Shown: positions 5,482 to 27,735 of the stretch, in pieces
Numbering within the stretch: the stretch's first letter is position 1
Layout: each line of letters opens with the position of its first letter
NCBI GenBank assembly: GCA_026204955.1
Contig: GCA_026204955.1_4545.1
Length of the DNA: 44,324 nt
Strand: one strand, 5' to 3'
Origin: a phage
Notes under the pieces: model-generated
What the model saw: the letters and a program-made list of their open reading frames with translations, nothing else
The model's database searches: none
Told to the model about the DNA's origin: nothing
Made by a program: the position numbers and the translations under genes

Positions 5482-8400
5482 CGATTATCTACGACGTCAC
5501 TGGGCATAAAGGCGGCGGCGGCAAACAGCACACCCCGCAGGAAACGCCGGACAGCCTGCATTCCCTGGCTAAAATCCGCATCTTGCTTGCACTGGGTGAG
5601 GGGGAATTCGAAAGTATTACCAGCGCAAGCGAATTGCGGCAGCGTGTATACCTGGACGGCACGCCGATCCAGAACGCAGACCTGTCAGAAAACTTCCCCG
5701 GCGCGCGCGTGGAGTTCCGCCCGGGCACACAGCACCAGGATGTGATCCACGGATTTTCAGCGGTAGAAAGCGAGCAATCCGTCGGTGTAAAACTGGAAAA
5801 CGGCACGCCGTGGGTGCGCCAGATTAATGACACCAGTCTTGACGCCGTGCGAATTCGCATCGGCATTCCAGCTTTGTACACTAACGAGGACAATGGCGAC
5901 CTGGTTGGCGGGCGCATCGACTACAAAATCGTTGTGTATACGGATAACGCCGACCCGCGTGAGTTCAGATTCGCCGCCGTTGGTAAAACAATGTCGCTAT
6001 ATGAGCGCGACCACCGCATCGAATTACCGCCGAACGTGAATACCGGCTGGCGAGTGGAGGTGCACCGCATAACGGCAGACTCCACATCGGCGAAAGTGGT
6101 GAACGATATTCAGGTGCAATCAATCACTGAGATTATCGACGCCCGCCTGCGCTACCCGCTAACCGCGCTGTTGTTCGTGGAGTTCGACGCTAAAGCGTTC
6201 CAGAACATCCCGCGCGTATCCATTAAGTGCAAAGGCCGCAAAGTGCTGGTGCCAAACAACTATGACCCGATTAATCATACCTATTCGGGCGACTGGGATG
6301 GCACGTTTAAACGCGCCTGGACGGACAACCCTGCGTGGCACTGGTACGATATTTGTATTACAGAGCGCTTCGGCCTCGGTCGGCGTATCAAACCGCAAAT
6401 GTTAAACCGGTACGCGCTCTACCAGATTGCGCAGCGCTGCGATCAGTTGGTCAGCGACGGCAACGGCGGGCAAGAAATCCGCTTTAAGAATGATATGTAC
6501 ATTCAGTCACAGACGGATGCCTGGACCGTGCTTAAGGATTTAGCCGCTATCTTTGCCGGTATGACCTGGTGGGGCAACCAGATGTTGAATATCGTAAGTG
6601 ACCAGCCGGTCGCAGCGGTATCGCACACTATCACCAACGCCTCGGTTATTGATGGCAGATTCGACTACGCGTCAGGGAGCCAGAAAACTCGCTATTCCAC
6701 GTTCGCGGTAGCATACGGCAACCCGAAGAACCACTATGAAGACGCCATCGCAACGGGCCAGCGTGTCGAACTGGTGCGCCGCCATAAAATCAACCGCCTT
6801 GATATAACGGCGATCGGCTGTACGCGTGAGTCAGAAGCGCAACGACGTGGGCACTGGGCGCTAATCTCCAACCAGCTTGACCAGCAAGTTAGCTTTAAGG
6901 TTGGCATGGAGGGACTTTTCTTTATTCCGGGTAGCGTAGTCGCGATCGCCGATACAAACATTTCTGGCGGCTTCGAGACACGCGGCGGTCGCCTGTTGTC
7001 GGACCCTGGCACGCGTACCGTGCTTAACACGGACAGCGAAATCACGTTCCGCCCAGGTGATAAATTCCTGGTACGCACCAATAGCGGTAATGTGGAGACT
7101 CGCGAGATCGCCAGCGTCAACGGCAACAAGGTTACGCTAAAAACCGCACTGGACGCCGACCCGATTCCTGATCAGCCGTTTTGCGTCGATGGCAACGATA
7201 TCCAGTTGCAGAAGTTCCGCATCACCGACCTGGAATATGACGACTCTACCAGCACTTTTTCAGTGCGCGGGATCGAGTACAACGATAGCAAATATGATGC
7301 CGTTGATAATGGCGCTCGCCTTGATCCGGGCATCTTTACTCAAGTGCCCGACGGTGTAATGAAGGGGCCAGAGTCCGTAACCATCACCCCGTCGCAGATT
7401 TCATCGCAAGGCCAGCTAATCACCAACGTGGATATTGTATTCCCTCCGGTGAAGGACGCCGTGGTGTATGAAATCCAGTGGCGACGTACCAGCTTGCAGA
7501 ATATGGAAATCCAGTGGGGTAACGACTGGGTTAACATCCCCCGCACGGCATCGAACGGCGCGCACATCCCTAACGTGTTCTCCGGTAACTACCAGGCACG
7601 CGTCCGCGCAATCGGTATGGGCGAGATTTCATCCCCGTGGGTGTCGTCTGCCATCACGCCGATAGAAGGTCGTCTCGGCGGGCTTAACGCGCCTATCATC
7701 ACCAACGCGATTTCGGGCCTCCACCAAATTTTGTGGAAGTGGAACCACAACAACGCCGCGACGGATATTTCGTACACCGAGCTTGAAGTGCGCAAGACCG
7801 GTGAAACGGAATGGAAATTTCTTACCAACGTCCCATACCCAGGGTCAGATTATGCGCAAACGTCGCTGGAGTTCGGGATCTATCAGCAGTTGCGCGCCCG
7901 CGTAGCAGATAAAATCGGCAACCTGTCAGACTGGTCAGCCCCGTTTGAAGGCCAGGTGAGTGACAAAGTCGACGAATACATGAAGGGGCTGGATGACGAG
8001 TTCTTGACTTCCGAAGATGGCAAACACTTCCAGGAAGCGATCGACACCATGCCGCAAGGCATTTACGAGGCTATGCTGACCGACGCACAGCAGCTATTCA
8101 ACGCCCGCGCCGAGTACAAAGGGATTTACGCAGAAATAACGGTCGCGTATAACGTGGCGGCGGACGCGCATAAAGCCGTAGCGCAACTGGAAACGTTGAT
8201 CGGCACGCGCCTTGATGACGCTGAGGCATCAATCCACACGTTGCAGACTGCGCAAAGCACACATGAACAAGCGTTCGCCCAGTACCAGCAAACTGTTGCC
8301 GCTAAGTTTTCGGAACAGGAAGCCGCCATCCAGCAGGTACAAACGGCAACGGCGGACGTAGCTGGCGCGCTGGCGGAGTATAAGACCCAGGTCGCGGCAC

Positions 8401-18667: not shown

Positions 18668-20959
18668 TTACTTCCTATACCGGTACATAATGTCGCCTTC
18701 TGCAGCGAGTGGGAACCCTTTCGCCCATACAGGCAGGTCGCACATCAGCGCACAAAGCTCCTCGGTAGTGTAGTCGTCGGTGTCCGGCACTTCGGTGATC
18801 AATTCATCGTGCACTGACAGGACGATTTCATATCCGGCAGCTTCAACGCCAGGCATGGACCACGCGAGAATATCGCGGCACAACGCCTGTACGATGTTCT
18901 CCGTCAGTTTGCCGCCGTAGGTATACTGGAAGCCCCACTGGCGCGTCGTCTGATTCTCGCCCTGATATTTAATGCGTGTGCTGGTGCGCTTCTTGCCGGT
19001 GTCTTCGTCAATCTCGGTAGTGACAGACAGCGCGATGCCGGGGTAGCTCATGATGCGCCCCGACGGCAACTCAATTTTCAACCACCACCCCGCGGCGTCC
19101 GGGTCGTCGCGCTCCTCGTCGAAGGTTGGGTCGTGCTTCGCCTTCGTACGGACAATCTTGAGCGCTTTTCTACCGTCCGGGCGAACGTTCGCGCCAGCCC
19201 AGTATGCTTTGCCCGGATTGCGGATTGCACACAACACCGCGTCCTCAAGCTCGGCCCAAAAGGCTACCGTCTTCGGGTGCGCCTCACGCCACATACGTTT
19301 GATTGCGTCACAAGTAAGCCATACGTTTTTCGGCAGTATGTATGTTGGGCGCTCGTCTTTCTTACCTGGCTTCGGCGGGCGTTTCGCTTCGTTAATGCGG
19401 GCGTACTCATAGCCGCGTTTCGCCGCCGCCCAAATGTGATCCGGGAACGTGCCTTTCATCACGTCCGCCATAGTGTAAAGGTCGAGGCCCAGGTTTTTAG
19501 CGAACTGCAAGAACGCCGCGACTCCGCCACCATAGCCCAGCCCCAATTCGCACGCCTTACCAATCTGGCGTAAGTCCTTGCGGTTGGCTTTAATGTAGTC
19601 CGGGTCCAGGCCGAACATCTTACCGGCAGTCTCGCAATAGATATCGCGACCGGCCTTAAAGACCATTAACGCTGTTTTCTCGCCAGCGATCCAGGCAAGG
19701 CCGCGCCCTTCCACGTTGGAGTAGTCCGCTACGACAAACTTCTTGCCCTTCGCCGGAATAATGCACCCGCGAACGGTCGAGGCCGTTAGCTTCGATATGT
19801 CATACGCCCAGTGTGCGGTCCCGCGTAACAGGGAGTTGATGCCGTTGGTGAGCATGTGCGACCGGACCCAAAACGAGACGTCGCTTTCACCCTCGCGGCG
19901 TTTAATCTTCCCTTCGTGGTCGTCGCTGTACTCGCCACGCGCCAGGTTTTGAGGTTGAAAGCCTTTACCGGCCCAGCGTAGTGTGCGCTTTGCCCCACCA
20001 TACTGAAGACAACCACGGCGGCGACCATCGGCGGACAGGCCATTGACAAGCGGATTGTATTTAGTAGATGCCGTTGATGACGCACCGAGGCGCATTTCGA
20101 TAAGCGCTTTGCCTTCGTCGGGGAAATCCGGGTCTTCAAGCAGGTCGTTAAGTGTGGATTTCTGCGCGTTGTGGATCGTGAACGCCGGGGCGATATCACG
20201 CAGGATTGGCAGGAAGTCATTGCCGGTCAGCTTACCGCCAAATCGCTCCCAGGCTTCTTCCTTCAATTCTTCCTTATGCGCCTGCACCGCTTTGATCGCG
20301 GCGTTCGCCAGGTCAACGTCCACATAGAAGCCGCGGTCGTTGATCAACTGGTCAATAAGCAGGATTTCATCTTCCTTCGGAGTATTACCCCAGTCCGGTA
20401 TGCGCCAGTAGACTTCACGCATTGCGATAATATCCAGCGCGGCATAGCGCAGAAATTTGGCCCACTCTTCTGGGTGAGTCTCGCGAGTGTAGCGGCGGAT
20501 TTTGTAGGTCTTAGGGGTAGGCTTACAGAATCGTTTAATCAGCGCCTTGCCTGCCTTATCCTTCGCGTGCTCTGCGTCAACGCCCAGCACCTGGCACTGC
20601 ATATCGAGGCTGCCGGGCAGAGCGTGGCGAAAGGCCATAATCATGGTGTCTTCGATCTGGCTTACCGGCAGGTCAATACCCCACTTCTCGCGAATAACCA
20701 GGCGGTCAAACAGGAGGCCGTTAGCCATCACTATTTTTGCTTTCTTGCGGGAAACATGGCGGAGCGCCTTGCGCAGTTCACGCGGCATTGTGGGGGATTC
20801 AGTGCAATCCCATGTCTGCACGCGGCCCTCGTCGATGGCGTATGTGCAAATCATAATCTCGGTGGTTGGGTGCTCTGCGTAGGCGTACGCCCCAACTTTC
20901 TTCGGGTCCACCCCGCTAAATGTCTCGGTGTCGAGAAACAGGCGTTCGAAGTCTTTCAT
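18668..20959 (-). CDS. DNA polymerase, family A (with 3'-5' exonuclease domain)
   Basis: 763 aa; N-terminal FLDTETFS (Exo I D-x-E); motif A DYSNVEGRGLAWIAGE, motif B RQIGKACELGLGYGGG, motif C VHDE. Confidence 0.85.
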   Translation of the reverse strand: MKDFERLFLDTETFSGVDPKKVGAYAYAEHPTTEIMICTYAIDEGRVQTWDCTESPTMPRELRKALRHVSRKKAKIVMANGLLFDRLVIREKWGIDLPVSQIEDTMIMAFRHALPGSLDMQCQVLGVDAEHAKDKAGKALIKRFCKPTPKTYKIRRYTRETHPEEWAKFLRYAALDIIAMREVYWRIPDWGNTPKEDEILLIDQLINDRGFYVDVDLANAAIKAVQAHKEELKEEAWERFGGKLTGNDFLPILRDIAPAFTIHNAQKSTLNDLLEDPDFPDEGKALIEMRLGASSTASTKYNPLVNGLSADGRRRGCLQYGGAKRTLRWAGKGFQPQNLARGEYSDDHEGKIKRREGESDVSFWVRSHMLTNGINSLLRGTAHWAYDISKLTASTVRGCIIPAKGKKFVVADYSNVEGRGLAWIAGEKTALMVFKAGRDIYCETAGKMFGLDPDYIKANRKDLRQIGKACELGLGYGGGVAAFLQFAKNLGLDLYTMADVMKGTFPDHIWAAAKRGYEYARINEAKRPPKPGKKDERPTYILPKNVWLTCDAIKRMWREAHPKTVAFWAELEDAVLCAIRNPGKAYWAGANVRPDGRKALKIVRTKAKHDPTFDEERDDPDAAGWWLKIELPSGRIMSYPGIALSVTTEIDEDTGKKRTSTRIKYQGENQTTRQWGFQYTYGGKLTENIVQALCRDILAWSMPGVEAAGYEIVLSVHDELITEVPDTDDYTTEELCALMCDLPVWAKGFPLAAEGDIMYRYRK

Positions 20960-21126
20960 TGCCTTATCCTCACTACGGCGTCAGCGCTGCCGATCATGGA
21001 GAAGATGCCGTCGGACAGGGCGATTTCTTCGCCGTTGTTGCGAATCTCGGCAACTGTGAAATATTCCCCCAGTAGCTTTGACCATACTTGCATTCCGACT
21101 TTTACTTCGCTGGCTTTAATACGCAT
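20956..21126 (-). CDS. small hypothetical protein (56 aa), translationally coupled to DNA polymerase
   Basis: Not in ORF track (under 60 aa). ATG at 21126 with AGGA RBS; translation MRIKASEVKVGMQVWSKLLGEYFTVAEIRNNGEEIALSDGIFSMIGSADAVVRIRQ; stop TGA overlaps polymerase ATG (ATGA). Confidence 0.3.
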   Translation of the reverse strand: MRIKASEVKVGMQVWSKLLGEYFTVAEIRNNGEEIALSDGIFSMIGSADAVVRIRQ

Positions 21127-21142
21127 TTTTCATTGTCCTATT

Positions 21143-21164
21143 AAAAAGCCCGCATTAAGCGGGC
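21143..21164 (-). terminator. rho-independent terminator after DUF2815-like gene
   Basis: Reverse strand GCCCGC-ttaat-GCGGGC followed by T5. Confidence 0.5.
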
Positions 21165-21184
21165 TTGAATAGTGGGCTTTGCCC

Positions 21185-21967
21185 TTAACGGCGGCGACGT
21201 TTGCGTGGTGCTTCGTCTTCGTCGTCGTCCTCATCTTCGTCATCGCGTGGTTTACGACGTTTGCGAGGTTTTTCATCTTCCTCATCGTCGTCGTCATCGC
21301 GGCGCTTGGATTTCTTGGACTTGCGCGGCTTGTCATCTTCATCATCGTCATCACGACGTTTTGACTTCTTAGCCTTGCGCGGTGCTTCGTCTTCGTCGTC
21401 GTTGTCCAGGTCTTCATCGGAGCAAGAAGACCCGCCACCGCCGAAGGCTTCACCGTCATCACGGAAGCGTAAACCCAGCAAGCCAGCGCCGAGTCCCTTG
21501 CCGTTGGTGTTGTTCCACGCCCAAATATCAAGGGACACGTTGCAATAACAACCAGAGTAGATCTCCTGGCCTTCAATCTCGTCGCCGTCTATGGTCAGAC
21601 CTTGTTCAGTCTGCTTCTCGCCGAGTGACGTTTGAATGATTGGTTGTTTGAACGATTTGGCGTTGATATACAACATGCCTTCGAATTCTTCGGTTACTTC
21701 ATCGCGCTCGTCGCCGTCGCGAACTGCACATTCCTTAGAATCCTGGGCGTAGTGGCGGTCCATCCACTTATCGGCATTCTTCTCGGATTTCAGCTTGTCG
21801 GTGAGCACTGCGCGTGCTGCCGCCTCCACTTTGTCCACCTGTGGATCTTCTTTATCCAGAAGAATCACGGCACGGTATGCCGGTTTTTGTCCATCCTGTT
21901 TAGGGGTATCACGTTCCCAGATTTTCAGGAAACATACGCGCACATTTTTCAGGTTGACTTTAGCCAT
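21185..21967 (-). CDS. DUF2815-like (putative ssDNA-binding) protein with charged-repeat C-terminal tail
   Basis: Preferred ATG 21967 (GAGGAA RBS); N-terminus MAKVNLKNVRVCFLKIW resembles DUF2815 proteins (family assignment from memory). C-terminal about 70 aa are alternating acidic/basic blocks (DDEDEAPRKAKKSKRRDDDDEDDKPRKSKK...). Confidence 0.45.
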   Translation of the reverse strand: MAKVNLKNVRVCFLKIWERDTPKQDGQKPAYRAVILLDKEDPQVDKVEAAARAVLTDKLKSEKNADKWMDRHYAQDSKECAVRDGDERDEVTEEFEGMLYINAKSFKQPIIQTSLGEKQTEQGLTIDGDEIEGQEIYSGCYCNVSLDIWAWNNTNGKGLGAGLLGLRFRDDGEAFGGGGSSCSDEDLDNDDEDEAPRKAKKSKRRDDDDEDDKPRKSKKSKRRDDDDDEEDEKPRKRRKPRDDEDEDDDEDEAPRKRRRR

Positions 21968-22022
21968 TTTCCAATTCCTCATTTTCACATGTATCGGGGA
22001 TATTGTGAGCCACCCCGTCCGG

Positions 22023-22047
22023 CTTGGTTGCTAATCTACTTGGTTGC
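22023..22047. repeat. direct repeat CTTGGTTGC x2 (16-bp periodicity) upstream of DUF2815-like gene
   Basis: CTTGGTTGC at 22023-22031 and 22039-22047 in the intergenic leader. Confidence 0.45.
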
Positions 22048-22057
22048 GCCTGAGCGG

Positions 22058-22300
22058 TCAAGCGTTTTTATTAAAAAGATTTCGTGTCACGTAGTTGGTG
22101 GCGTTCTCGATCCAGCTTAACGGCGGGCGGTCGATGTTCTTCTCCACCCAGTCGACGGCAGCGTCGCGATATCCGTCGTCCAGCCAACGGGTTGGATGAC
22201 GAATCATCCAGGCCACCATCAACACGCCTTGCACGCAATGCAGGATAAAGCCCAGCGCGCCGAGCAAAAACATCAATAAGATTGCGAATACTTTATTCAT
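22058..22300 (-). CDS. small membrane protein
   Basis: 80 aa; N-terminal hydrophobic stretch FAILLMFLLGALGFILHCVQGVLMVAWMI consistent with 1-2 transmembrane helices. Confidence 0.35.
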   Translation of the reverse strand: MNKVFAILLMFLLGALGFILHCVQGVLMVAWMIRHPTRWLDDGYRDAAVDWVEKNIDRPPLSWIENATNYVTRNLFNKNA

Positions 22301-23723
22301 TACTTAAGTCCTCGTCGGTAGCTTCAGACCACGCAGGGCGCGGGTCGTCGATTGGTGCTAATACCGGTTTTGCCGGTGCGCGCGTGATTTTATCACACAA
22401 CTTCGCCCACACTTTCGGCTTCTCGTCCTTCAGTACCTTCTCGGCATCCGTAGGACTGAGCAATGTTTCTTTGTACATCACGTCGCGCTTGATCCGGGCC
22501 TTCGTGAAGATCTCAATCACTTCGCTCTCGTCCGCCCACTTGCGGATTCCTTCCTTACCGGCAACCATCTTGAGGCCCAGCGATTCGCCATCACCCGCCA
22601 TTACGGCCTTGAACACCGCGGACTCGATAGCCTTGATGTGCTGGCGCATTGCGTCAAGACCTTCATAAGCCTTGCGCAGTTCCGCGGCGGTCATTGCGCC
22701 GGGGGCAGCTTCTTTCTTACCACGCTTCGCACGTCGTGCCGCTTTGCGGGCTTCGCGGGCCATATTGCGGTCGTGATTGGCGCATTCTTCCTCTGTCGCA
22801 ATACTCACGTCGTCGCCCAGGTCTTCGTCTGTTGCCGTTGGTGGGGTCACCGTGTCGATTGCAGCCTTAGCGCGGGCGCTACACTGATCCGCAAATCTGC
22901 ACCACTGACACGCATCAACGCTCGGTCGGAAGTCGGCACGGGTGAGTCCTTTCTTACCGCGGGCATACGCTTCCAGGGCGGCGACAGCACGCTTGGACGC
23001 AAACTTAGCGAATATCTCCAGGGCTTCTACCGAAATATCCCACTCCGACGCCCCGCCGCAATATGGCTGGAAGATAACCAGGCGCACGGTCGTAATGTCG
23101 TACATAGTTTTCAGCTTGCGCAGCAGGCCCAGCGCATACAACATAAGCTGTTTGTTTTCTTTCGCCTCGACCTTATGCCGCCCGGTCTTCAGGTCGCCAA
23201 CAATCAGCATGTACGTGCCGTCGGTCTTCTTCATGACCATGACCATATCGGCAGTGCCGAACGTCTTAACCCGGTTGCCGTCGATCTCGAAGCCAGAGTG
23301 TAGGACGCGGGTAAGATCGGCGCGCATCTCAAGCTGGACAAACTCCGCCACTTCGAGGAGCGGTCGCCAGTGGTCAATGTACGCGTCGCACTGTTTCACC
23401 ATATCGTCGTTGACCAGTACGCCGCCTTTCGGTGCTTTCGGGTGCGCCTTCACTGGCCCCTTACCTTCGTTCTCGACGTAGCACCCTTTGTACGTCTTAG
23501 CGGTTATCATCTTCTCCCCGGCGATAATGCGGTTTAGCACGACTTCCGATACGGTGTGCATACTCGTACCGTTAATCGCCGCTTGCCCGGATTCGTTCGG
23601 GATATCTTTTTCTACTACCAGGGCCGCGGGACACCCCATCCATTTTTTAGCACCGGATGGCCCGAGTAATGAATGTTCCGTATTACTACCGGATTGTGTT
23701 TTGCGCTTCGGTTTAATCGCCAT
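22293..23723 (-). CDS. DUF2800-like PD-(D/E)XK (Cas4-like) nuclease
   Basis: 476 aa; Cys cluster CQWCRFADQCS (C-x2-C-x5-C) as in Cas4/RecB-type Fe-S nucleases; gene order with DUF2815-like and PolA genes typical of a conserved phage replication module. Confidence 0.5.
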   Translation of the reverse strand: MAIKPKRKTQSGSNTEHSLLGPSGAKKWMGCPAALVVEKDIPNESGQAAINGTSMHTVSEVVLNRIIAGEKMITAKTYKGCYVENEGKGPVKAHPKAPKGGVLVNDDMVKQCDAYIDHWRPLLEVAEFVQLEMRADLTRVLHSGFEIDGNRVKTFGTADMVMVMKKTDGTYMLIVGDLKTGRHKVEAKENKQLMLYALGLLRKLKTMYDITTVRLVIFQPYCGGASEWDISVEALEIFAKFASKRAVAALEAYARGKKGLTRADFRPSVDACQWCRFADQCSARAKAAIDTVTPPTATDEDLGDDVSIATEEECANHDRNMAREARKAARRAKRGKKEAAPGAMTAAELRKAYEGLDAMRQHIKAIESAVFKAVMAGDGESLGLKMVAGKEGIRKWADESEVIEIFTKARIKRDVMYKETLLSPTDAEKVLKDEKPKVWAKLCDKITRAPAKPVLAPIDDPRPAWSEATDEDLSNE

Positions 23724-24163: not shown

Positions 24164-24211
24164 TGTCTCGTCCTCTAAAAAGATGCCCGCTAATCTGCGG
24201 GCCGGAATATA

Positions 24212-24727
24212 TTAATCTTCCAGTTCGAAATAGGTTTCGACGATTTCTTTTAACTCTGTGTGGAAGTCTTCGACGTCGCCATCTTCCAGCTTGGCGATTG
24301 ATTTGATCTCGAACGATTCCAGCAGGTCGTCGAATTCGTCGTTCGCGTCGTCGTCATCACCGCCCGCGATAATCGCGGCATATTGTTTGATCTCGTCGCG
24401 CATCTCCGCCAGCGGATCGGCATCTTTCTTACCTTTGCCTTTCGCCGGTGCTTTTTTAGATTTAGCCGGTTTTTCGTCTTCGGCCTCATCGTCGTCATCT
24501 TCTACGACTTCTTTTTTGGCCTTACCCTTCGCCGGTGCTTTTTTAGCTTTAGCCGGTTTTTCGTCTTCGGCGTCATCGTCGTCATCTTCGACAACTTCTT
24601 TTTTGGCCTTAGACGGCTTCTTGTCTTCCTGTTTACCAACGGCAGCGCCAACGGTTTCATAATGCTTTGCAATGGTTTCCAGTGCTACTACGCCGCGAGT
24701 GATCAGGTTTACGATTTGCTCAAACAT
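24212..24727 (-). CDS. acidic/lysine-rich repeat protein (first gene of leftward operon)
   Basis: Preferred ATG 24727 (GGAG RBS); 171 aa with two tandem repeats KKEVVEDDDD.AEDEKPAK.KKAPAKGK and an acidic C-terminus; DNA contains about 87-bp tandem duplication. Confidence 0.45.
   Translation of the reverse strand: MFEQIVNLITRGVVALETIAKHYETVGAAVGKQEDKKPSKAKKEVVEDDDDDAEDEKPAKAKKAPAKGKAKKEVVEDDDDEAEDEKPAKSKKAPAKGKGKKDADPLAEMRDEIKQYAAIIAGGDDDDANDEFDDLLESFEIKSIAKLEDGDVEDFHTELKEIVETYFELED
24433..24607. repeat. tandem duplication (about 87 bp x2) inside acidic-repeat protein gene
   Basis: Two near-identical units each spanning ...CGCCGGTGCTTTTTTAG(A/C)TTTAGCCGGTTTTTCGTCTTCGGC...TCATCGTCGTCATCTTC...TTCTTTTTTGGC. 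Confidence 0.55.
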
Positions 24728-24923: not shown

Positions 24924-24953
24924 ATAATAGATTGGTTGCAGGATGGGTGTCAA
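24924..24953 (-). promoter_or_regulatory. leftward early promoter
   Basis: Reverse strand -35 TTGACA (24953-24948), 18-nt spacer, -10 TATTAT (24929-24924), upstream of acidic-repeat protein gene. Confidence 0.45.
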
Positions 24954-25470: not shown

Positions 25471-27735
25471 ATGAGCTTGATTAAATTCGCTGTAACAAAA
25501 CCCGCTAAAAAAGGCGAAAAAGCCAGGGCGGAAAACTTCCAGATGACGACCGATGAGTTTTTCGAATTTATCAAAGATGCGAAAGAAATCTCCTCGGTGC
25601 ATATCAACAAGACGGAAGATAAAGCCGAGTATGCGCGCCGCAAGCGTAAGGCCGATGGCATCGTGGCGTATACCAGTGACGGATTGCGCCGCAAGACCAG
25701 TGCCGTGGACCGCTCGATCCTGTTCTTCGATATTGACCGCACCGACACCCGCACCCTGCGCCGCTGCCGTAGGGCGTTCATCGACGCGGGTCTGGAACAC
25801 GTATTTCACACCACCACCGGCGACCGCCACCCGCTGAAGAGCGGCACGCGTTGCGCCCGTTTCCTGGTGCTCACTGACAAGCCTGTACCGGCTGAAGACC
25901 TGGGCCGCGTCCAGTATGCACTATTACACCAACTGGGCCTGTCAGATGTGGACTTCGATGATTGTACGAAAGACACAAACCGCCTGATGTACCTGCCACA
26001 CCAGCAGTCCGTTATTAAGTGCCATTATGGCAAGCGCGCCAATGTGCGTCGTCTACTACGTCGGGCGGACAAGCTGGGGGTGGAAAAAGAGGAAGTACGC
26101 CGCGAGCTTACCAAGGGCGACGACGCAGTGGCAGACGGCATTCTGGACTGGTGCTTCCAGGCCGGATTCGAGGAGTTATCTTCTGGTCGCGGTTATGAAG
26201 TGCCGTGCCCGAACGAACATCTGCACAGCGGCGAAGGGTCGACGGCTATCATGGTCAAGGATGGCGAGATCCGTTTCAAGTGTATGCACACCGGCAACGA
26301 GTGTTGCTCGGAGCTAAATAGACACCAGCACCTTGCGCTACGTCTCATCGGGATACCGGACCACCTGAACGTCGAGCCGCACAACATGTCACGTAAGCAA
26401 ATCTCCGCCATCCTCCCGGGGCTGGACGACGAGGAAGTCGAATCCTTATATGAACATATTGTTGATGCGGTTGGCGACGGCGAAGAATACGGCGTGTGCA
26501 CCGATGCGGATCTGGATAACGAGCCGGTTGCGCTGTTCAGTAAGCACGACCCGATTATCGAGGGGTTGGTTAACTTTAAATCAACCTGGTATATGGCGGG
26601 TGAGTCGAACATCGGTAAATCGTTCTACGTGCTGGGGCAAATGGGTGCGGTTGCCGCGGGGATTCCGTTCGGTGGCGCGAAGGTCGTCCAGTCGCACTGC
26701 TTTTATTTCGACGCGGAAGGCGGCGAAGCCTCCAACCAGCGTAAGGAAGCCCTGCAGATCAAATATGAGCACGACCTGGACAAGCTGCACATTATCGATC
26801 TGCAATCACGCGGCTGGGATATCACCAGCAAATCAGGCTTGCGCGAAGTTATCAGCTTTATCAATCGCACAGCTAACGGGGAGCCGGTTGGCCTGGTGGC
26901 ATTCGACTCACTCAACCAGACTGTTGCGTTGCGGTCCGCCGATTCTAAACCGTTCGACGAGAACAACGCCAGCGATATGGGTGAAGTGGTCAAAGCGCTG
27001 AAGGCCATTGCGGAAAATACAGGCGGCAGTGCGGGCGTCATCCACCACCCGGCAAAAGGTGCAAACGGCAGCAGATCTCCCCGTGGGTCCGGCGCGCTGC
27101 ATGGCGCTGTCGATTCTGCGTTCTTCCTGGAGCAACCGGACGACAATCAGCCGGGCCAATTGAACCTGTATCACGAAAAGGCACGTAACGGCATCAAGCA
27201 AGCGCCGCGCGGCTTCGTCCTGCTCAAGTGCAAGGTTAAGGTGGATCTCCGCAAGTCCGAAGCGTTCGAATCACACCAGTCCACCAGCACCGGGCCTGAC
27301 TTCGGCGACGTGGTTGCCGGTTGGGACGTCAAGCCAATTGCATCCACGCCACGCGACGAGACTCTTTATCTCGTACCGGTCGCCCTGGCACCGTTCGCCA
27401 TCGAACAGGCGAAGGCCGCGGGCAAGGCCGCAGTTAAGGATGAGAACGCCGCAGGACCGCGCAACGAAAAAGAGAAAGTGCTTTATGCGGCGCTGGAAAA
27501 ACTGATGGAAGATAACCCGGACCATACCGGATTCAGTAAATCGGCAATCGTCCGCCAGGCGGGATTGGCAAAAGGTGGCACATCGACGAAGGCAATCGAC
27601 GATATGATCGAGCGCGGCGTACTCGGTTTTTATACAGACCCGCACACCGGGGCCATCTACGGGTCGTCGAATATCGTCATCAAAACGAATATACCCATCA
27701 CGCTTTCGGCGACCGATGACGACTTAAAAGATTAA
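25471..27735 (+). CDS. primase/helicase (AEP primase-polymerase-like N-terminus + P-loop ATPase C-terminus)
   Basis: 754 aa; FFDIDR resembles AEP motif I (hhhDhD); Cys/His cluster CPNEHLH...CMHTGNEC; Walker A GESNIGKS and Walker B-like LVAFDSLNQ. Confidence 0.6.
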   Translation: MSLIKFAVTKPAKKGEKARAENFQMTTDEFFEFIKDAKEISSVHINKTEDKAEYARRKRKADGIVAYTSDGLRRKTSAVDRSILFFDIDRTDTRTLRRCRRAFIDAGLEHVFHTTTGDRHPLKSGTRCARFLVLTDKPVPAEDLGRVQYALLHQLGLSDVDFDDCTKDTNRLMYLPHQQSVIKCHYGKRANVRRLLRRADKLGVEKEEVRRELTKGDDAVADGILDWCFQAGFEELSSGRGYEVPCPNEHLHSGEGSTAIMVKDGEIRFKCMHTGNECCSELNRHQHLALRLIGIPDHLNVEPHNMSRKQISAILPGLDDEEVESLYEHIVDAVGDGEEYGVCTDADLDNEPVALFSKHDPIIEGLVNFKSTWYMAGESNIGKSFYVLGQMGAVAAGIPFGGAKVVQSHCFYFDAEGGEASNQRKEALQIKYEHDLDKLHIIDLQSRGWDITSKSGLREVISFINRTANGEPVGLVAFDSLNQTVALRSADSKPFDENNASDMGEVVKALKAIAENTGGSAGVIHHPAKGANGSRSPRGSGALHGAVDSAFFLEQPDDNQPGQLNLYHEKARNGIKQAPRGFVLLKCKVKVDLRKSEAFESHQSTSTGPDFGDVVAGWDVKPIASTPRDETLYLVPVALAPFAIEQAKAAGKAAVKDENAAGPRNEKEKVLYAALEKLMEDNPDHTGFSKSAIVRQAGLAKGGTSTKAIDDMIERGVLGFYTDPHTGAIYGSSNIVIKTNIPITLSATDDDLKD

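Follow-up and report, generated by a model that had tools for sequence, protein, structure and literature searches.

We analyzed a phage contig of 44,324 nucleotides (contig GCA_026204955.1_4545.1 of the NCBI GenBank assembly GCA_026204955.1; hereafter, the window), with a focus on the gene at 21185..21967 on the minus strand, which encodes an SSB (a protein that binds single-stranded DNA) whose C-terminal tail consists of alternating acidic and basic blocks. The source phage is a Dhillonvirus (HK578-like Escherichia coli siphovirus); positions 20900-22100 were 98.5% identical to Escherichia phage Gluttony_ev152, and 155 phage records matched this region. The mechanically called open reading frame (ORF) spans 21185..21988 (-) with its stop codon at 21185-21187 and encodes 267 amino acids, and the start codon is probably ATG 21967, judging from the GAGGAA Shine-Dalgarno sequence upstream, which would give a protein of 260 amino acids. 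This protein is a PF10991/DUF2815 SSB of the T7 gp2.5/Enc34 type. Specifically, PF10991 (Enc34_ssDNA-bd, formerly DUF2815) matched amino acids 10-200 of the 267-residue ORF with 108.9 bits (cut-off 26) and an expectation value (E) of 3e-31, bearing out the label "DUF2815-like" that had been given from the letters alone, and PHROGs assigned it to phrog_112, "Gp2.5-like ssDNA binding and annealing protein" (E 6e-55). In an AlphaFold2 model built with 60 homologues, amino acids 1-170 (21458..21967) formed a confident OB fold with a predicted local distance difference test score (pLDDT) above 90. Foldseek matched the model to 4klk (a DUF2815 structure; 1e-12), Enc34 ORF6 5odl (4e-12; also 5odj) and T7 gp2.5 1je5 (1e-6), a similarity that rests on a predicted model rather than a solved structure, and 5odj was also found by the SSB family profile (E 5e-32). 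Two aromatic residues of Enc34, Trp150 and Tyr156, stack on the bases of single-stranded DNA; in the profile alignment, for which the tag offset was inferred, the equivalent of Trp150 was kept (in DIW) with an extra Trp two residues further on, and the equivalent of Tyr156 was Asn. PF00436 gave no match in the SSB at E up to 0.01, and the E. coli SSB structures scored E above 1 in Foldseek.

The region after the OB fold is composed of three parts. The domain end and a glycine-rich hinge, DGEAFGGGGSSC (21422..21457, minus strand; pLDDT ~64 then 54), include the DGEAF motif that is near-invariant across the DUF2815 family. The hinge is followed by a proximal acidic-leucine motif, SDEDLDN (21401..21421, minus strand), a putative docking motif at the position of the canonical DDFxD[LIV]. 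Positions 21188-21400 (-) then encode the 71-amino-acid tail, DDEDEAPRK...PRKRRRR, which forms the C-terminal end of the SSB and reads in translation exactly as the original prediction had described it, as an alternating acidic/basic low-complexity sequence. By translation, the tail is divided into unit 1, DDEDE-APRKAKKSKRR (21353..21400), unit 2, DDDDEDD-KPRKSKKSKRR (21299..21352), unit 3, DDDDDEEDE-KPRKRRKPR (21245..21298), and unit 4 with the C-terminus, DDEDEDDDEDE-APRKRRRR (21188..21244), all on the minus strand. Each unit is laid out as an acidic run, then x-P-R-K, then a basic run, and the last unit closes with an arginine run. The bacterial DDDIPF-type acidic-hydrophobic C-terminal tip was not present in the SSB translation; the extreme C-terminus, ...APRKRRRR, is neither acidic-hydrophobic nor aromatic. 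Amino acids 171-260 had pLDDT values of 46-64 and no secondary structure in the AlphaFold2 model, by which the tail is predicted to be intrinsically disordered. Note that a charged single alpha-helix was considered for the tail and ruled out, given the Asp-rich blocks of 5-11 residues, the prolines and the lack of a helix in the model.

We next characterized the charge pattern of the tail. The 71 residues comprise 32 D/E, 28 K/R, 5 P, 3 A and 3 S, so that the fraction of charged residues is 0.85 and the net charge per residue -0.06; the net charge is -4 over the 71 residues and -8 over the entire region after the OB fold. The charges fall into eight alternating blocks (-5 +7 -7 +8 -9 +7 -11 +6). 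The charge-segregation parameter kappa was ~0.55, as compared with 0.10 +/- 0.05 in composition-preserving shuffles, none of which reached the observed value (0/20,000, z 9.6). On the other hand, the tail did not stand out from shuffled sequences by the sequence-charge-decoration measure (z -0.8), a result of the short distance over which its blocks alternate. High charged fraction, near-zero net charge and segregation above shuffles, the features of a charge-block polyampholyte, were thus all found in the tail. When viewed as an unstructured acidic tail, the region after the OB fold is predicted to lack structure and, at -8, has the same net charge as the median member of the family, yet 28 of the last 71 residues are basic.

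To see how the tail varies among close relatives, we used 16 Dhillonvirus contigs from IMG/VR with the SSB gene, of which one carries a copy cut by adapter at the contig end, leaving 15 complete tails. In the cut copy (L014), the SSB frame runs into ...AVSYTHLRAHET at the contig end, which we take to be translated Nextera adapter, an artefact rather than a variant tail. The 15 complete tails had two to four units with all insertions and deletions in frame, in proteins of 224-261 amino acids (a two-unit cluster representative has 218). Unit 1 was near-constant, 14 of the 15 shared the ending APRKRRRR, with L016, the most divergent tail, having PRSRRNRR instead, and it was the internal units 2 and 3 that were gained or lost between relatives. 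In contigs of equal length, the ratio of non-synonymous to synonymous divergence (pN/pS) was 0.064 for the tail and 0.059 for the OB domain, and pS was 0.23 and 0.21, respectively; replacements in the tail were conservative (D/E, A/S, K/R and similar). The tail is therefore under purifying selection at the amino-acid level, as strong as that on the OB fold, indicating that it is selected as protein. Far from being absent or unconserved in relatives, the tail was kept under this selection across Dhillonvirus and was present in shorter form in Jerseyvirus, Kagunavirus and Cornellvirus.

The same comparison bears on whether the repeated DNA itself could be functional, as iterons or an origin, or through an overlapping product in an alternative frame. 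The tail DNA does have a tandem period of 54 nucleotides, and a T/K/M-rich frame, 21130..21576 (-), is open across the whole tail and is the frame read in the frameshifted records described below; a serine-rich frame, 21201-21548 (+), overlaps the tail as well. However, the DNA repeat was weak, with 2.3 copies and 72% matches at 21277-21402 in Tandem Repeats Finder, and the charge pattern was kept in genera with unrelated DNA. Open alternative frames are expected from runs of GAY/GAR/AAR/CGN codons, and these two show no sign of constraint, being by-products of such runs. Moreover, tail pS was not below domain pS, indicating that the tail DNA carries no additional constraint, which argues against iterons or a second frame. 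A DNA-level element or dual coding is therefore extremely improbable, and we rejected both, as tail and domain have diverged equally at synonymous sites and the DNA repeat is a weak one.

We then placed the tail in the wider family. An exhaustive HMMER search gave 2,492 DUF2815 cluster representatives at E up to 0.001, and the tails of 259 proteins were classified via alignment to the conserved DGEAF motif. In 180 proteins the tails were canonical, with a median of 25 amino acids and at most four basic residues, and, in a rough motif-based parse, ended mostly in A, F, I, V or L (for example, ...DDFDDISEGADASDLV and ...DDDADDDIFG). Alternating acidic/basic tails of 32-170 amino acids were found in 78 proteins, and every relative with at least 43% identity had a tail of this type. 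According to GenBank records, a single repeat unit is present in Jerseyvirus Ent1 (SVDDLEDDEDETPRRERRRNR) and Kagunavirus K1G (SVNDLEDDEEDEAPRRERRRR), two to three units in Cornellvirus Shemara and up to four in Dhillonvirus. In a neighbour-joining tree, the alternating tails fell into one 69-member clade and five small separate lineages; since this tree is rough (BLOSUM distances, no bootstrap), the number of about five other lineages is approximate. In five of the eight small-lineage proteins (P0090, P0109, P0113, P0117 and P0192) an acidic-hydrophobic tip was kept after the repeats (e.g., ...RRDDDDVV, ...DDDDDIG and ...DDDDLLG), so that the repeats there occupy a linker position, inserted between the proximal motif and the kept tip. 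Separately, the tails of two distant DUF2815 proteins, P0192 and P0249, contained long Arg-Asp/Arg-Ser repeats (RDRDRS..., DDDDDRGSRSRSR...) like those of eukaryotic RS/RD domains; these tails were weakly blocky and kept an acidic-hydrophobic ending (DDLV and DLVD).

Charge segregation was a general property of the alternating tails, with a median kappa of 0.52 and z above 3 in 97% of 76 tails. The median net tail charge was -8 in both classes (interquartile range -9 to -6 in alternating and -10 to -6 in canonical tails). In the 78 alternating tails, the acidic count equaled 1.00 times the basic count plus 7.6 (r 0.84), a regression dominated by one large clade, and this acidic excess, constant with respect to the basic count, indicates that the repeats add charge-neutral length to an acidic tail. 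The tail of the window's SSB breaks the acidic-hydrophobic tip rule of its family and keeps a net charge of about -8. These results also bear on the possibility that the repeats serve as a spacer or entropic bristle that is prone to slippage and largely neutral, with only net charge and solubility being of importance. Two to four copies among close relatives, the single unit in Jerseyvirus and Kagunavirus, the frameshifted tails in two isolates and the very variable analogous linker of a second protein (see below) are all in line with such a spacer. However, a neutral spacer would hardly show a pN/pS equal to that of the folded domain, conservative substitutions (D/E, K/R, A/S) and near-constant terminal units, nor blockiness in 97% of related tails that recurs in about five other lineages of the rough tree. 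We therefore consider it very unlikely.

The acidic-leucine motif links the SSB to two other proteins of the window. In the SSB, SDEDLDN lies between the glycine hinge and the repeats, and the equivalent in relatives is ATDDDLGDD. The SSB motif peptide, SSCSDEDLDNDD, has counterparts in LSATDDDLKD of the primase-helicase (25471-27735, plus strand, opposite to the SSB) and SEATDEDLSNE of the DUF2800 PD-(D/E)XK nuclease (22293-23723, minus strand). By sequence match, the primase-helicase copy, SATDDDLKD, is at the C-terminus (27706..27732, +), and the nuclease has both a C-terminal copy, EATDEDLSNE (22296..22325, -), and an internal one, TATDEDLGDD (22809..22838, -). These three were the only matches to T[DE][DEG]DL in window ORFs of at least 80 amino acids, the SSB having the variant SDEDL. 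Both nuclease copies were exact or one-residue variants in 15 of 15 Dhillonvirus loci covering the gene. The nuclease carries an equivalent motif in Ent1, K1G and Shemara, and likewise the helicase in Ent1 and K1G, where it ends in ..TTEGDLE and ..TVTEEDLE, respectively. The helicase/primase tail motif was absent in three distant modules, indicating that it is not family-wide. Among tails with an acidic pair and then a hydrophobic residue within the first 22 residues, the residue after the pair was L in 61 of 68 alternating tails and F in 129 of 159 canonical tails.

The resemblance between SSB and nuclease extends beyond this clade. In the 84 modules with both genes, many nuclease C-termini copied the bipartite grammar of the SSB tail (for example, SSB ...DDFDDISEGADASDLV versus nuclease ...NDFDDVSDDALAADLI). 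Within-module similarity of SSB and nuclease tails exceeded that of shuffled pairings in 38 non-redundant modules (z 5.1 for the best 6-mer and 5.5 for the last four residues), and none of 20,000 permutations reached the observed value. In the alternating-tail clade, the distal tip was missing from both proteins. It has been reported that, in T7, one basic patch of the gp5 polymerase is bound both by the gp2.5 tail and by a C-terminal peptide of gp4 (PMC12339929). Because the same motif occurs on helicase and nuclease, in parallel with T7 gp2.5/gp4, we infer that the acidic-leucine motif may be a peptide by which these proteins dock on a shared replisome partner, for which the polymerase is a candidate, although its choice is a guess.

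A second charged-repeat protein of 171 amino acids lies at 24212..24727 (-) and was assigned to phrog_3127 (E 2e-53), with GGAG before its ATG at 24727. The original prediction held that two proteins of this operon have such tails. The second protein does have charged repeats of similar grammar (an acidic run, then an x-P-(K/R)-K-rich run) on the same strand and in the same module; however, its repeat is internal. In the AlphaFold2 model, it consists of an N-terminal helix (amino acids 2-24), a disordered region (24-100, pLDDT below 50) and a confident three-helix domain (105-167), so that the repeat, being flanked by the helix and the helical domain, is an internal linker and not a tail. The linker (24428..24658, -) contains 2 x 29 amino acids of acidic/lysine-rich repeat, with a period of 87 nucleotides and 95% identity at 24441-24611 (Tandem Repeats Finder). 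Among Dhillonviruses it was 16-80 amino acids long and some variants had no acidic block; with length and acidic blocks so variable, the linker appears to be under much weaker constraint than the tail of the SSB. Ent1 ORF41 and K1G ORF38 are counterparts, as judged by their position and by a visible similarity at both termini, with a shorter charged center (EEDKPKRKPRKAK). The mechanical ORF starts at ATG 24907 (231 amino acids), and most homologues have 133-180 amino acids and begin MFEQIV; the long form in several database records is probably an over-extension. Attempts to assign a function through Pfam, PHROGs, AlphaFold2 and a Foldseek search of BFVD led only to phage proteins that are uncharacterised. 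A BUD22 match in Pfam (E 0.004, 16.8 bits, cut-off 37) was dismissed as compositional, and the similarity between the charged segments of the two proteins, for which tblastn without low-complexity filter gave ~45% identity, is likewise taken as compositional rather than as homology.

It had further been proposed that the two repeats reflect a shared interaction or condensate-forming role, that is, that the SSB tail and the repeat of the second protein are matched co-assembling modules, co-scaffolds of a replication condensate. That the proteins share an interaction is plausible; the evidence, however, favors another element, the acidic-leucine motif common to the SSB, the primase-helicase and the DUF2800 nuclease. 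Both charged segments are predicted to be disordered, have similar unit grammar, grow and shrink by whole units, and occur in proteins at the same module position in Jerseyvirus and Kagunavirus; furthermore, charge blockiness is reported to be tied to phase separation (PMC9106583), and E. coli SSB to form condensates (PMC7584906). However, the ~45% cross-match is compositional, the unit numbers of the two proteins gave no evidence of covariation, and in some viable-looking Dhillonviruses the linker of the second protein is down to 16 amino acids with no acidic block. Matched co-scaffolds are therefore, in our view, rather improbable. In two distant modules, L023 (4080-4514) and L025 (4400-4747), a small protein just upstream of the nuclease shares its tip with the SSB of its module (...EEEDDVV versus SSB ...DDDDVV, and ...ELELV versus SSB ...NDLV, respectively); it may be the positional counterpart of the second protein of the window, which ends ...YFELED.

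The leftward replication module of the window comprises the second charged-repeat protein (24212-24727), the DUF2800 nuclease, the SSB and a family A DNA polymerase (18668-20959, minus strand), and this gene order was also found in Ent1, K1G, Shemara and metagenomic modules. Elsewhere, the distant module L024 (10483-12218) adjoins a diversity-generating retroelement (bAvd and reverse transcriptase), and in L025 a GapR-like DNA-binding protein (6595-6867) lies directly after the SSB gene. A sigma-70-like promoter candidate, TTGACA-18-TATTAT (11/12), at 24924..24953 (-), upstream of the second protein, is likely the start of the leftward transcription unit, as judged by a consensus scan only. 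A GC-rich hairpin with a T run (GCCCGC...GCGGGC) is located directly 3' of both charged-repeat genes: an intrinsic-terminator-like hairpin, AAGCCCGC-TTAAT-GCGGGCTT, followed by a T-rich stretch, was read from the sequence at 21143..21166 (-) after the SSB gene, and a terminator-like hairpin lies at 24185..24202 (-) after that of the second protein. The consensus scan did not detect the hairpin at 21143-21166, because its T run pairs into the stem. A terminator is annotated in the equivalent region of CS16, PTXU06 and WFI, and the Ent1 and Shemara records have one that directly follows the SSB gene. The hairpin after the SSB gene may keep expression of the SSB far higher than that of the polymerase downstream.

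Taken together, we consider, at about even odds (a probability of roughly 0.5), that the tail is an elaborated SSB tail, in which, instead of the usual acidic-hydrophobic tip, a multivalent polyampholyte is combined with a docking motif. The acidic-leucine motif would dock a common replisome partner, and the charge-balanced acidic/basic units would act as the multivalent polyampholyte, whose basic blocks could pair up with acidic blocks, within one tail or between neighbors, or with the phosphates of DNA. As long as the protein is free, such pairing might mask the acidic docking and DNA-mimic segment; on single-stranded DNA (ssDNA), tails might link adjacent SSBs, giving cooperativity, bridging, strand annealing and possibly condensates. 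The number of units would change by unequal recombination or slippage, thereby tuning valency. Self-association, gating and condensation are putative roles of the tail. A stronger version, which we regard as a rather remote prospect, is that the SSB is a self-associating scaffold whose basic blocks zip onto the acidic blocks of neighbors on ssDNA, forming a cooperative coat or small condensate that concentrates proteins with the docking peptide. If this were true, the scaffold would recruit the primase-helicase, the DUF2800 nuclease and perhaps the second charged-repeat protein, and an ordinary 44-kb siphovirus would have an electrostatically patterned replication compartment with unit number as an evolvable valency dial.

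The basic blocks could instead be DNA-binding arms of the histone-H1/SPKK type, which add affinity for double-stranded DNA (dsDNA) or junctions or screen charge for annealing, the acidic blocks keeping solubility and net charge. SPKK is a minor-groove motif, and the units read x-P-R-K-x-K-K-S-K-R-R, with a literal S-P-R-K, which resembles SPKK, in unit 1 of several Dhillonvirus relatives; the window units, however, read APRK, KPRK, KPRK and APRK, that is, with A or K rather than S/T before the proline. The second protein has a linker (KKAPAKGKAKK) reminiscent of H1/AlgP-like lysine-alanine-proline repeats, the PHROGs label of the SSB family includes annealing ("ssDNA binding and annealing"), and the C-terminal arginine run is the part likeliest to contact nucleic acid. 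On the other hand, an acidic residue matches each basic one, so that DNA binding in cis would be largely neutralised, and the Enc34 tail lowers dsDNA binding instead of raising it. DNA-binding arms are thus possible but unlikely as the principal role, and note that this explanation overlaps with the elaborated SSB tail and is not exclusive of it.

Several points weigh against the elaborated SSB tail. Every mechanistic step past a disordered, selected and charge-patterned tail is inference. The charge balance draws mainly on one large clade, and two proteins of independent lineages, P0109 and P0117, deviate with net charges near -25. Valency is not critical, because two to four units occur in near-identical phages and only one in Jerseyvirus and Kagunavirus. 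Kozlov and colleagues reportedly found in 2015 that a highly charged Plasmodium SSB linker placed on E. coli SSB abolishes cooperativity, so that a charged linker is not automatically pro-cooperative. Furthermore, two GenBank Dhillonvirus isolates from the same study, MZ234008.1 (L017) and MZ234014.1 (L018), and a metagenomic contig (protein P0006) have differing frameshifts within or just before the tail, by which unrelated sequence takes the place of part or all of it; all three enter the same open alternative frame, ending ...AGFL(I/L)GQ. These frameshifts may be sequencing or assembly errors in the repeat; if they are real, plaques can form without much of the tail.

C-terminal tails of SSBs are hubs that organize replication, repair and recombination, and the textbook rule for them is an acidic tail with a hydrophobic tip. 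Dhillonvirus, Jerseyvirus, Kagunavirus and Cornellvirus are among the members of a large enterobacterial siphovirus clade in which the tip rule is broken and the net charge is kept. These phages offer a natural tail series, from one to four or more units, to probe cooperativity, ssDNA/dsDNA discrimination, partner recruitment and condensation, and phages of the BASEL collection in this group include Oekolampad and PaulFeyerabend. The nuclease (and, in this clade, the helicase) carries a peptide that varies in concert with the tail of the SSB, by which the "shared tail" logic of T7 is extended to a widespread module, and the co-varying tails suggest a common receptor or docking site, as for T7 gp2.5 and gp4 on gp5. 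Given that phage SSBs trigger retron defences, identifying the exposed part of this SSB could also matter for phage-defence work. In full-text literature searches, which covered few subscription journals, no paper describing this tail was found, as judged from titles and abstracts.

Finally, we compared the SSB with known systems. It resembles T7 gp2.5 in fold class (Foldseek E 1e-6 to 1je5), with an OB fold and a disordered, net-negative C-terminal tail, and in belonging to a replisome of family A polymerase and primase-helicase in which a tail motif is common to SSB and helicase; the identity between the two proteins is 10-15%. Unlike the T7 tail, which is short and purely acidic and has an essential phenylalanine as its last residue, the tail of the window is ~90 amino acids long, has 28 basic residues in four blocks, ends in RRRR and carries its acidic-hydrophobic motif internally. 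With Enc34 ORF6 (5ODJ/5ODK/5ODL; Enterobacter/Hafnia phage) it shares PF10991, Trp150 and, by prediction, an unstructured C-terminal region, but 16 of the last 29 residues of Enc34 ORF6 are D or E with no basic blocks, and its Tyr156 is Asn in the SSB of the window. Enc34 ORF6 has an OB fold and an unstructured acidic tail, and deletion of 21 residues of this tail left ssDNA binding unchanged and allowed dsDNA binding (PMC5686142); specificity for ssDNA over dsDNA through the tail is thus experimental for Enc34 only. E. coli SSB is built likewise, from a core that binds DNA, a disordered linker whose length varies and a short acidic peptide for docking; its linker is reported to govern cooperativity and phase separation, and the protein to form condensates (PMC7584906). 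However, its core is not homologous, its linker is G/Q/P-rich and charge-poor, and the very C-terminal end is formed by its docking peptide; in the SSB of the window this order is reversed, with the motif before the repeats, and the repeats are ~85% charged. In T4 gp32, a basic, K/R/S/T-rich N-terminal B-domain mediates cooperative protein-protein contacts, and an acidic C-terminal A-domain binds partners and damps DNA binding. This likeness is a functional analogy, as gp32 belongs to a different fold family and its charged modules are unrepeated and at opposite ends. Work on Ki-67 reportedly links charge blockiness of disordered proteins to phase separation (PMC9106583). The charge-block regions of Ki-67 and NPM1 have a high charged fraction, near-neutral net charge and alternating opposite blocks, as does the tail of the window, but these are eukaryotic proteins whose blockiness is tuned by phosphorylation. 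The SSB sequence itself is present in many public genomes, and its alternating tail is a departure from the known tails of gp2.5/Enc34 SSBs.

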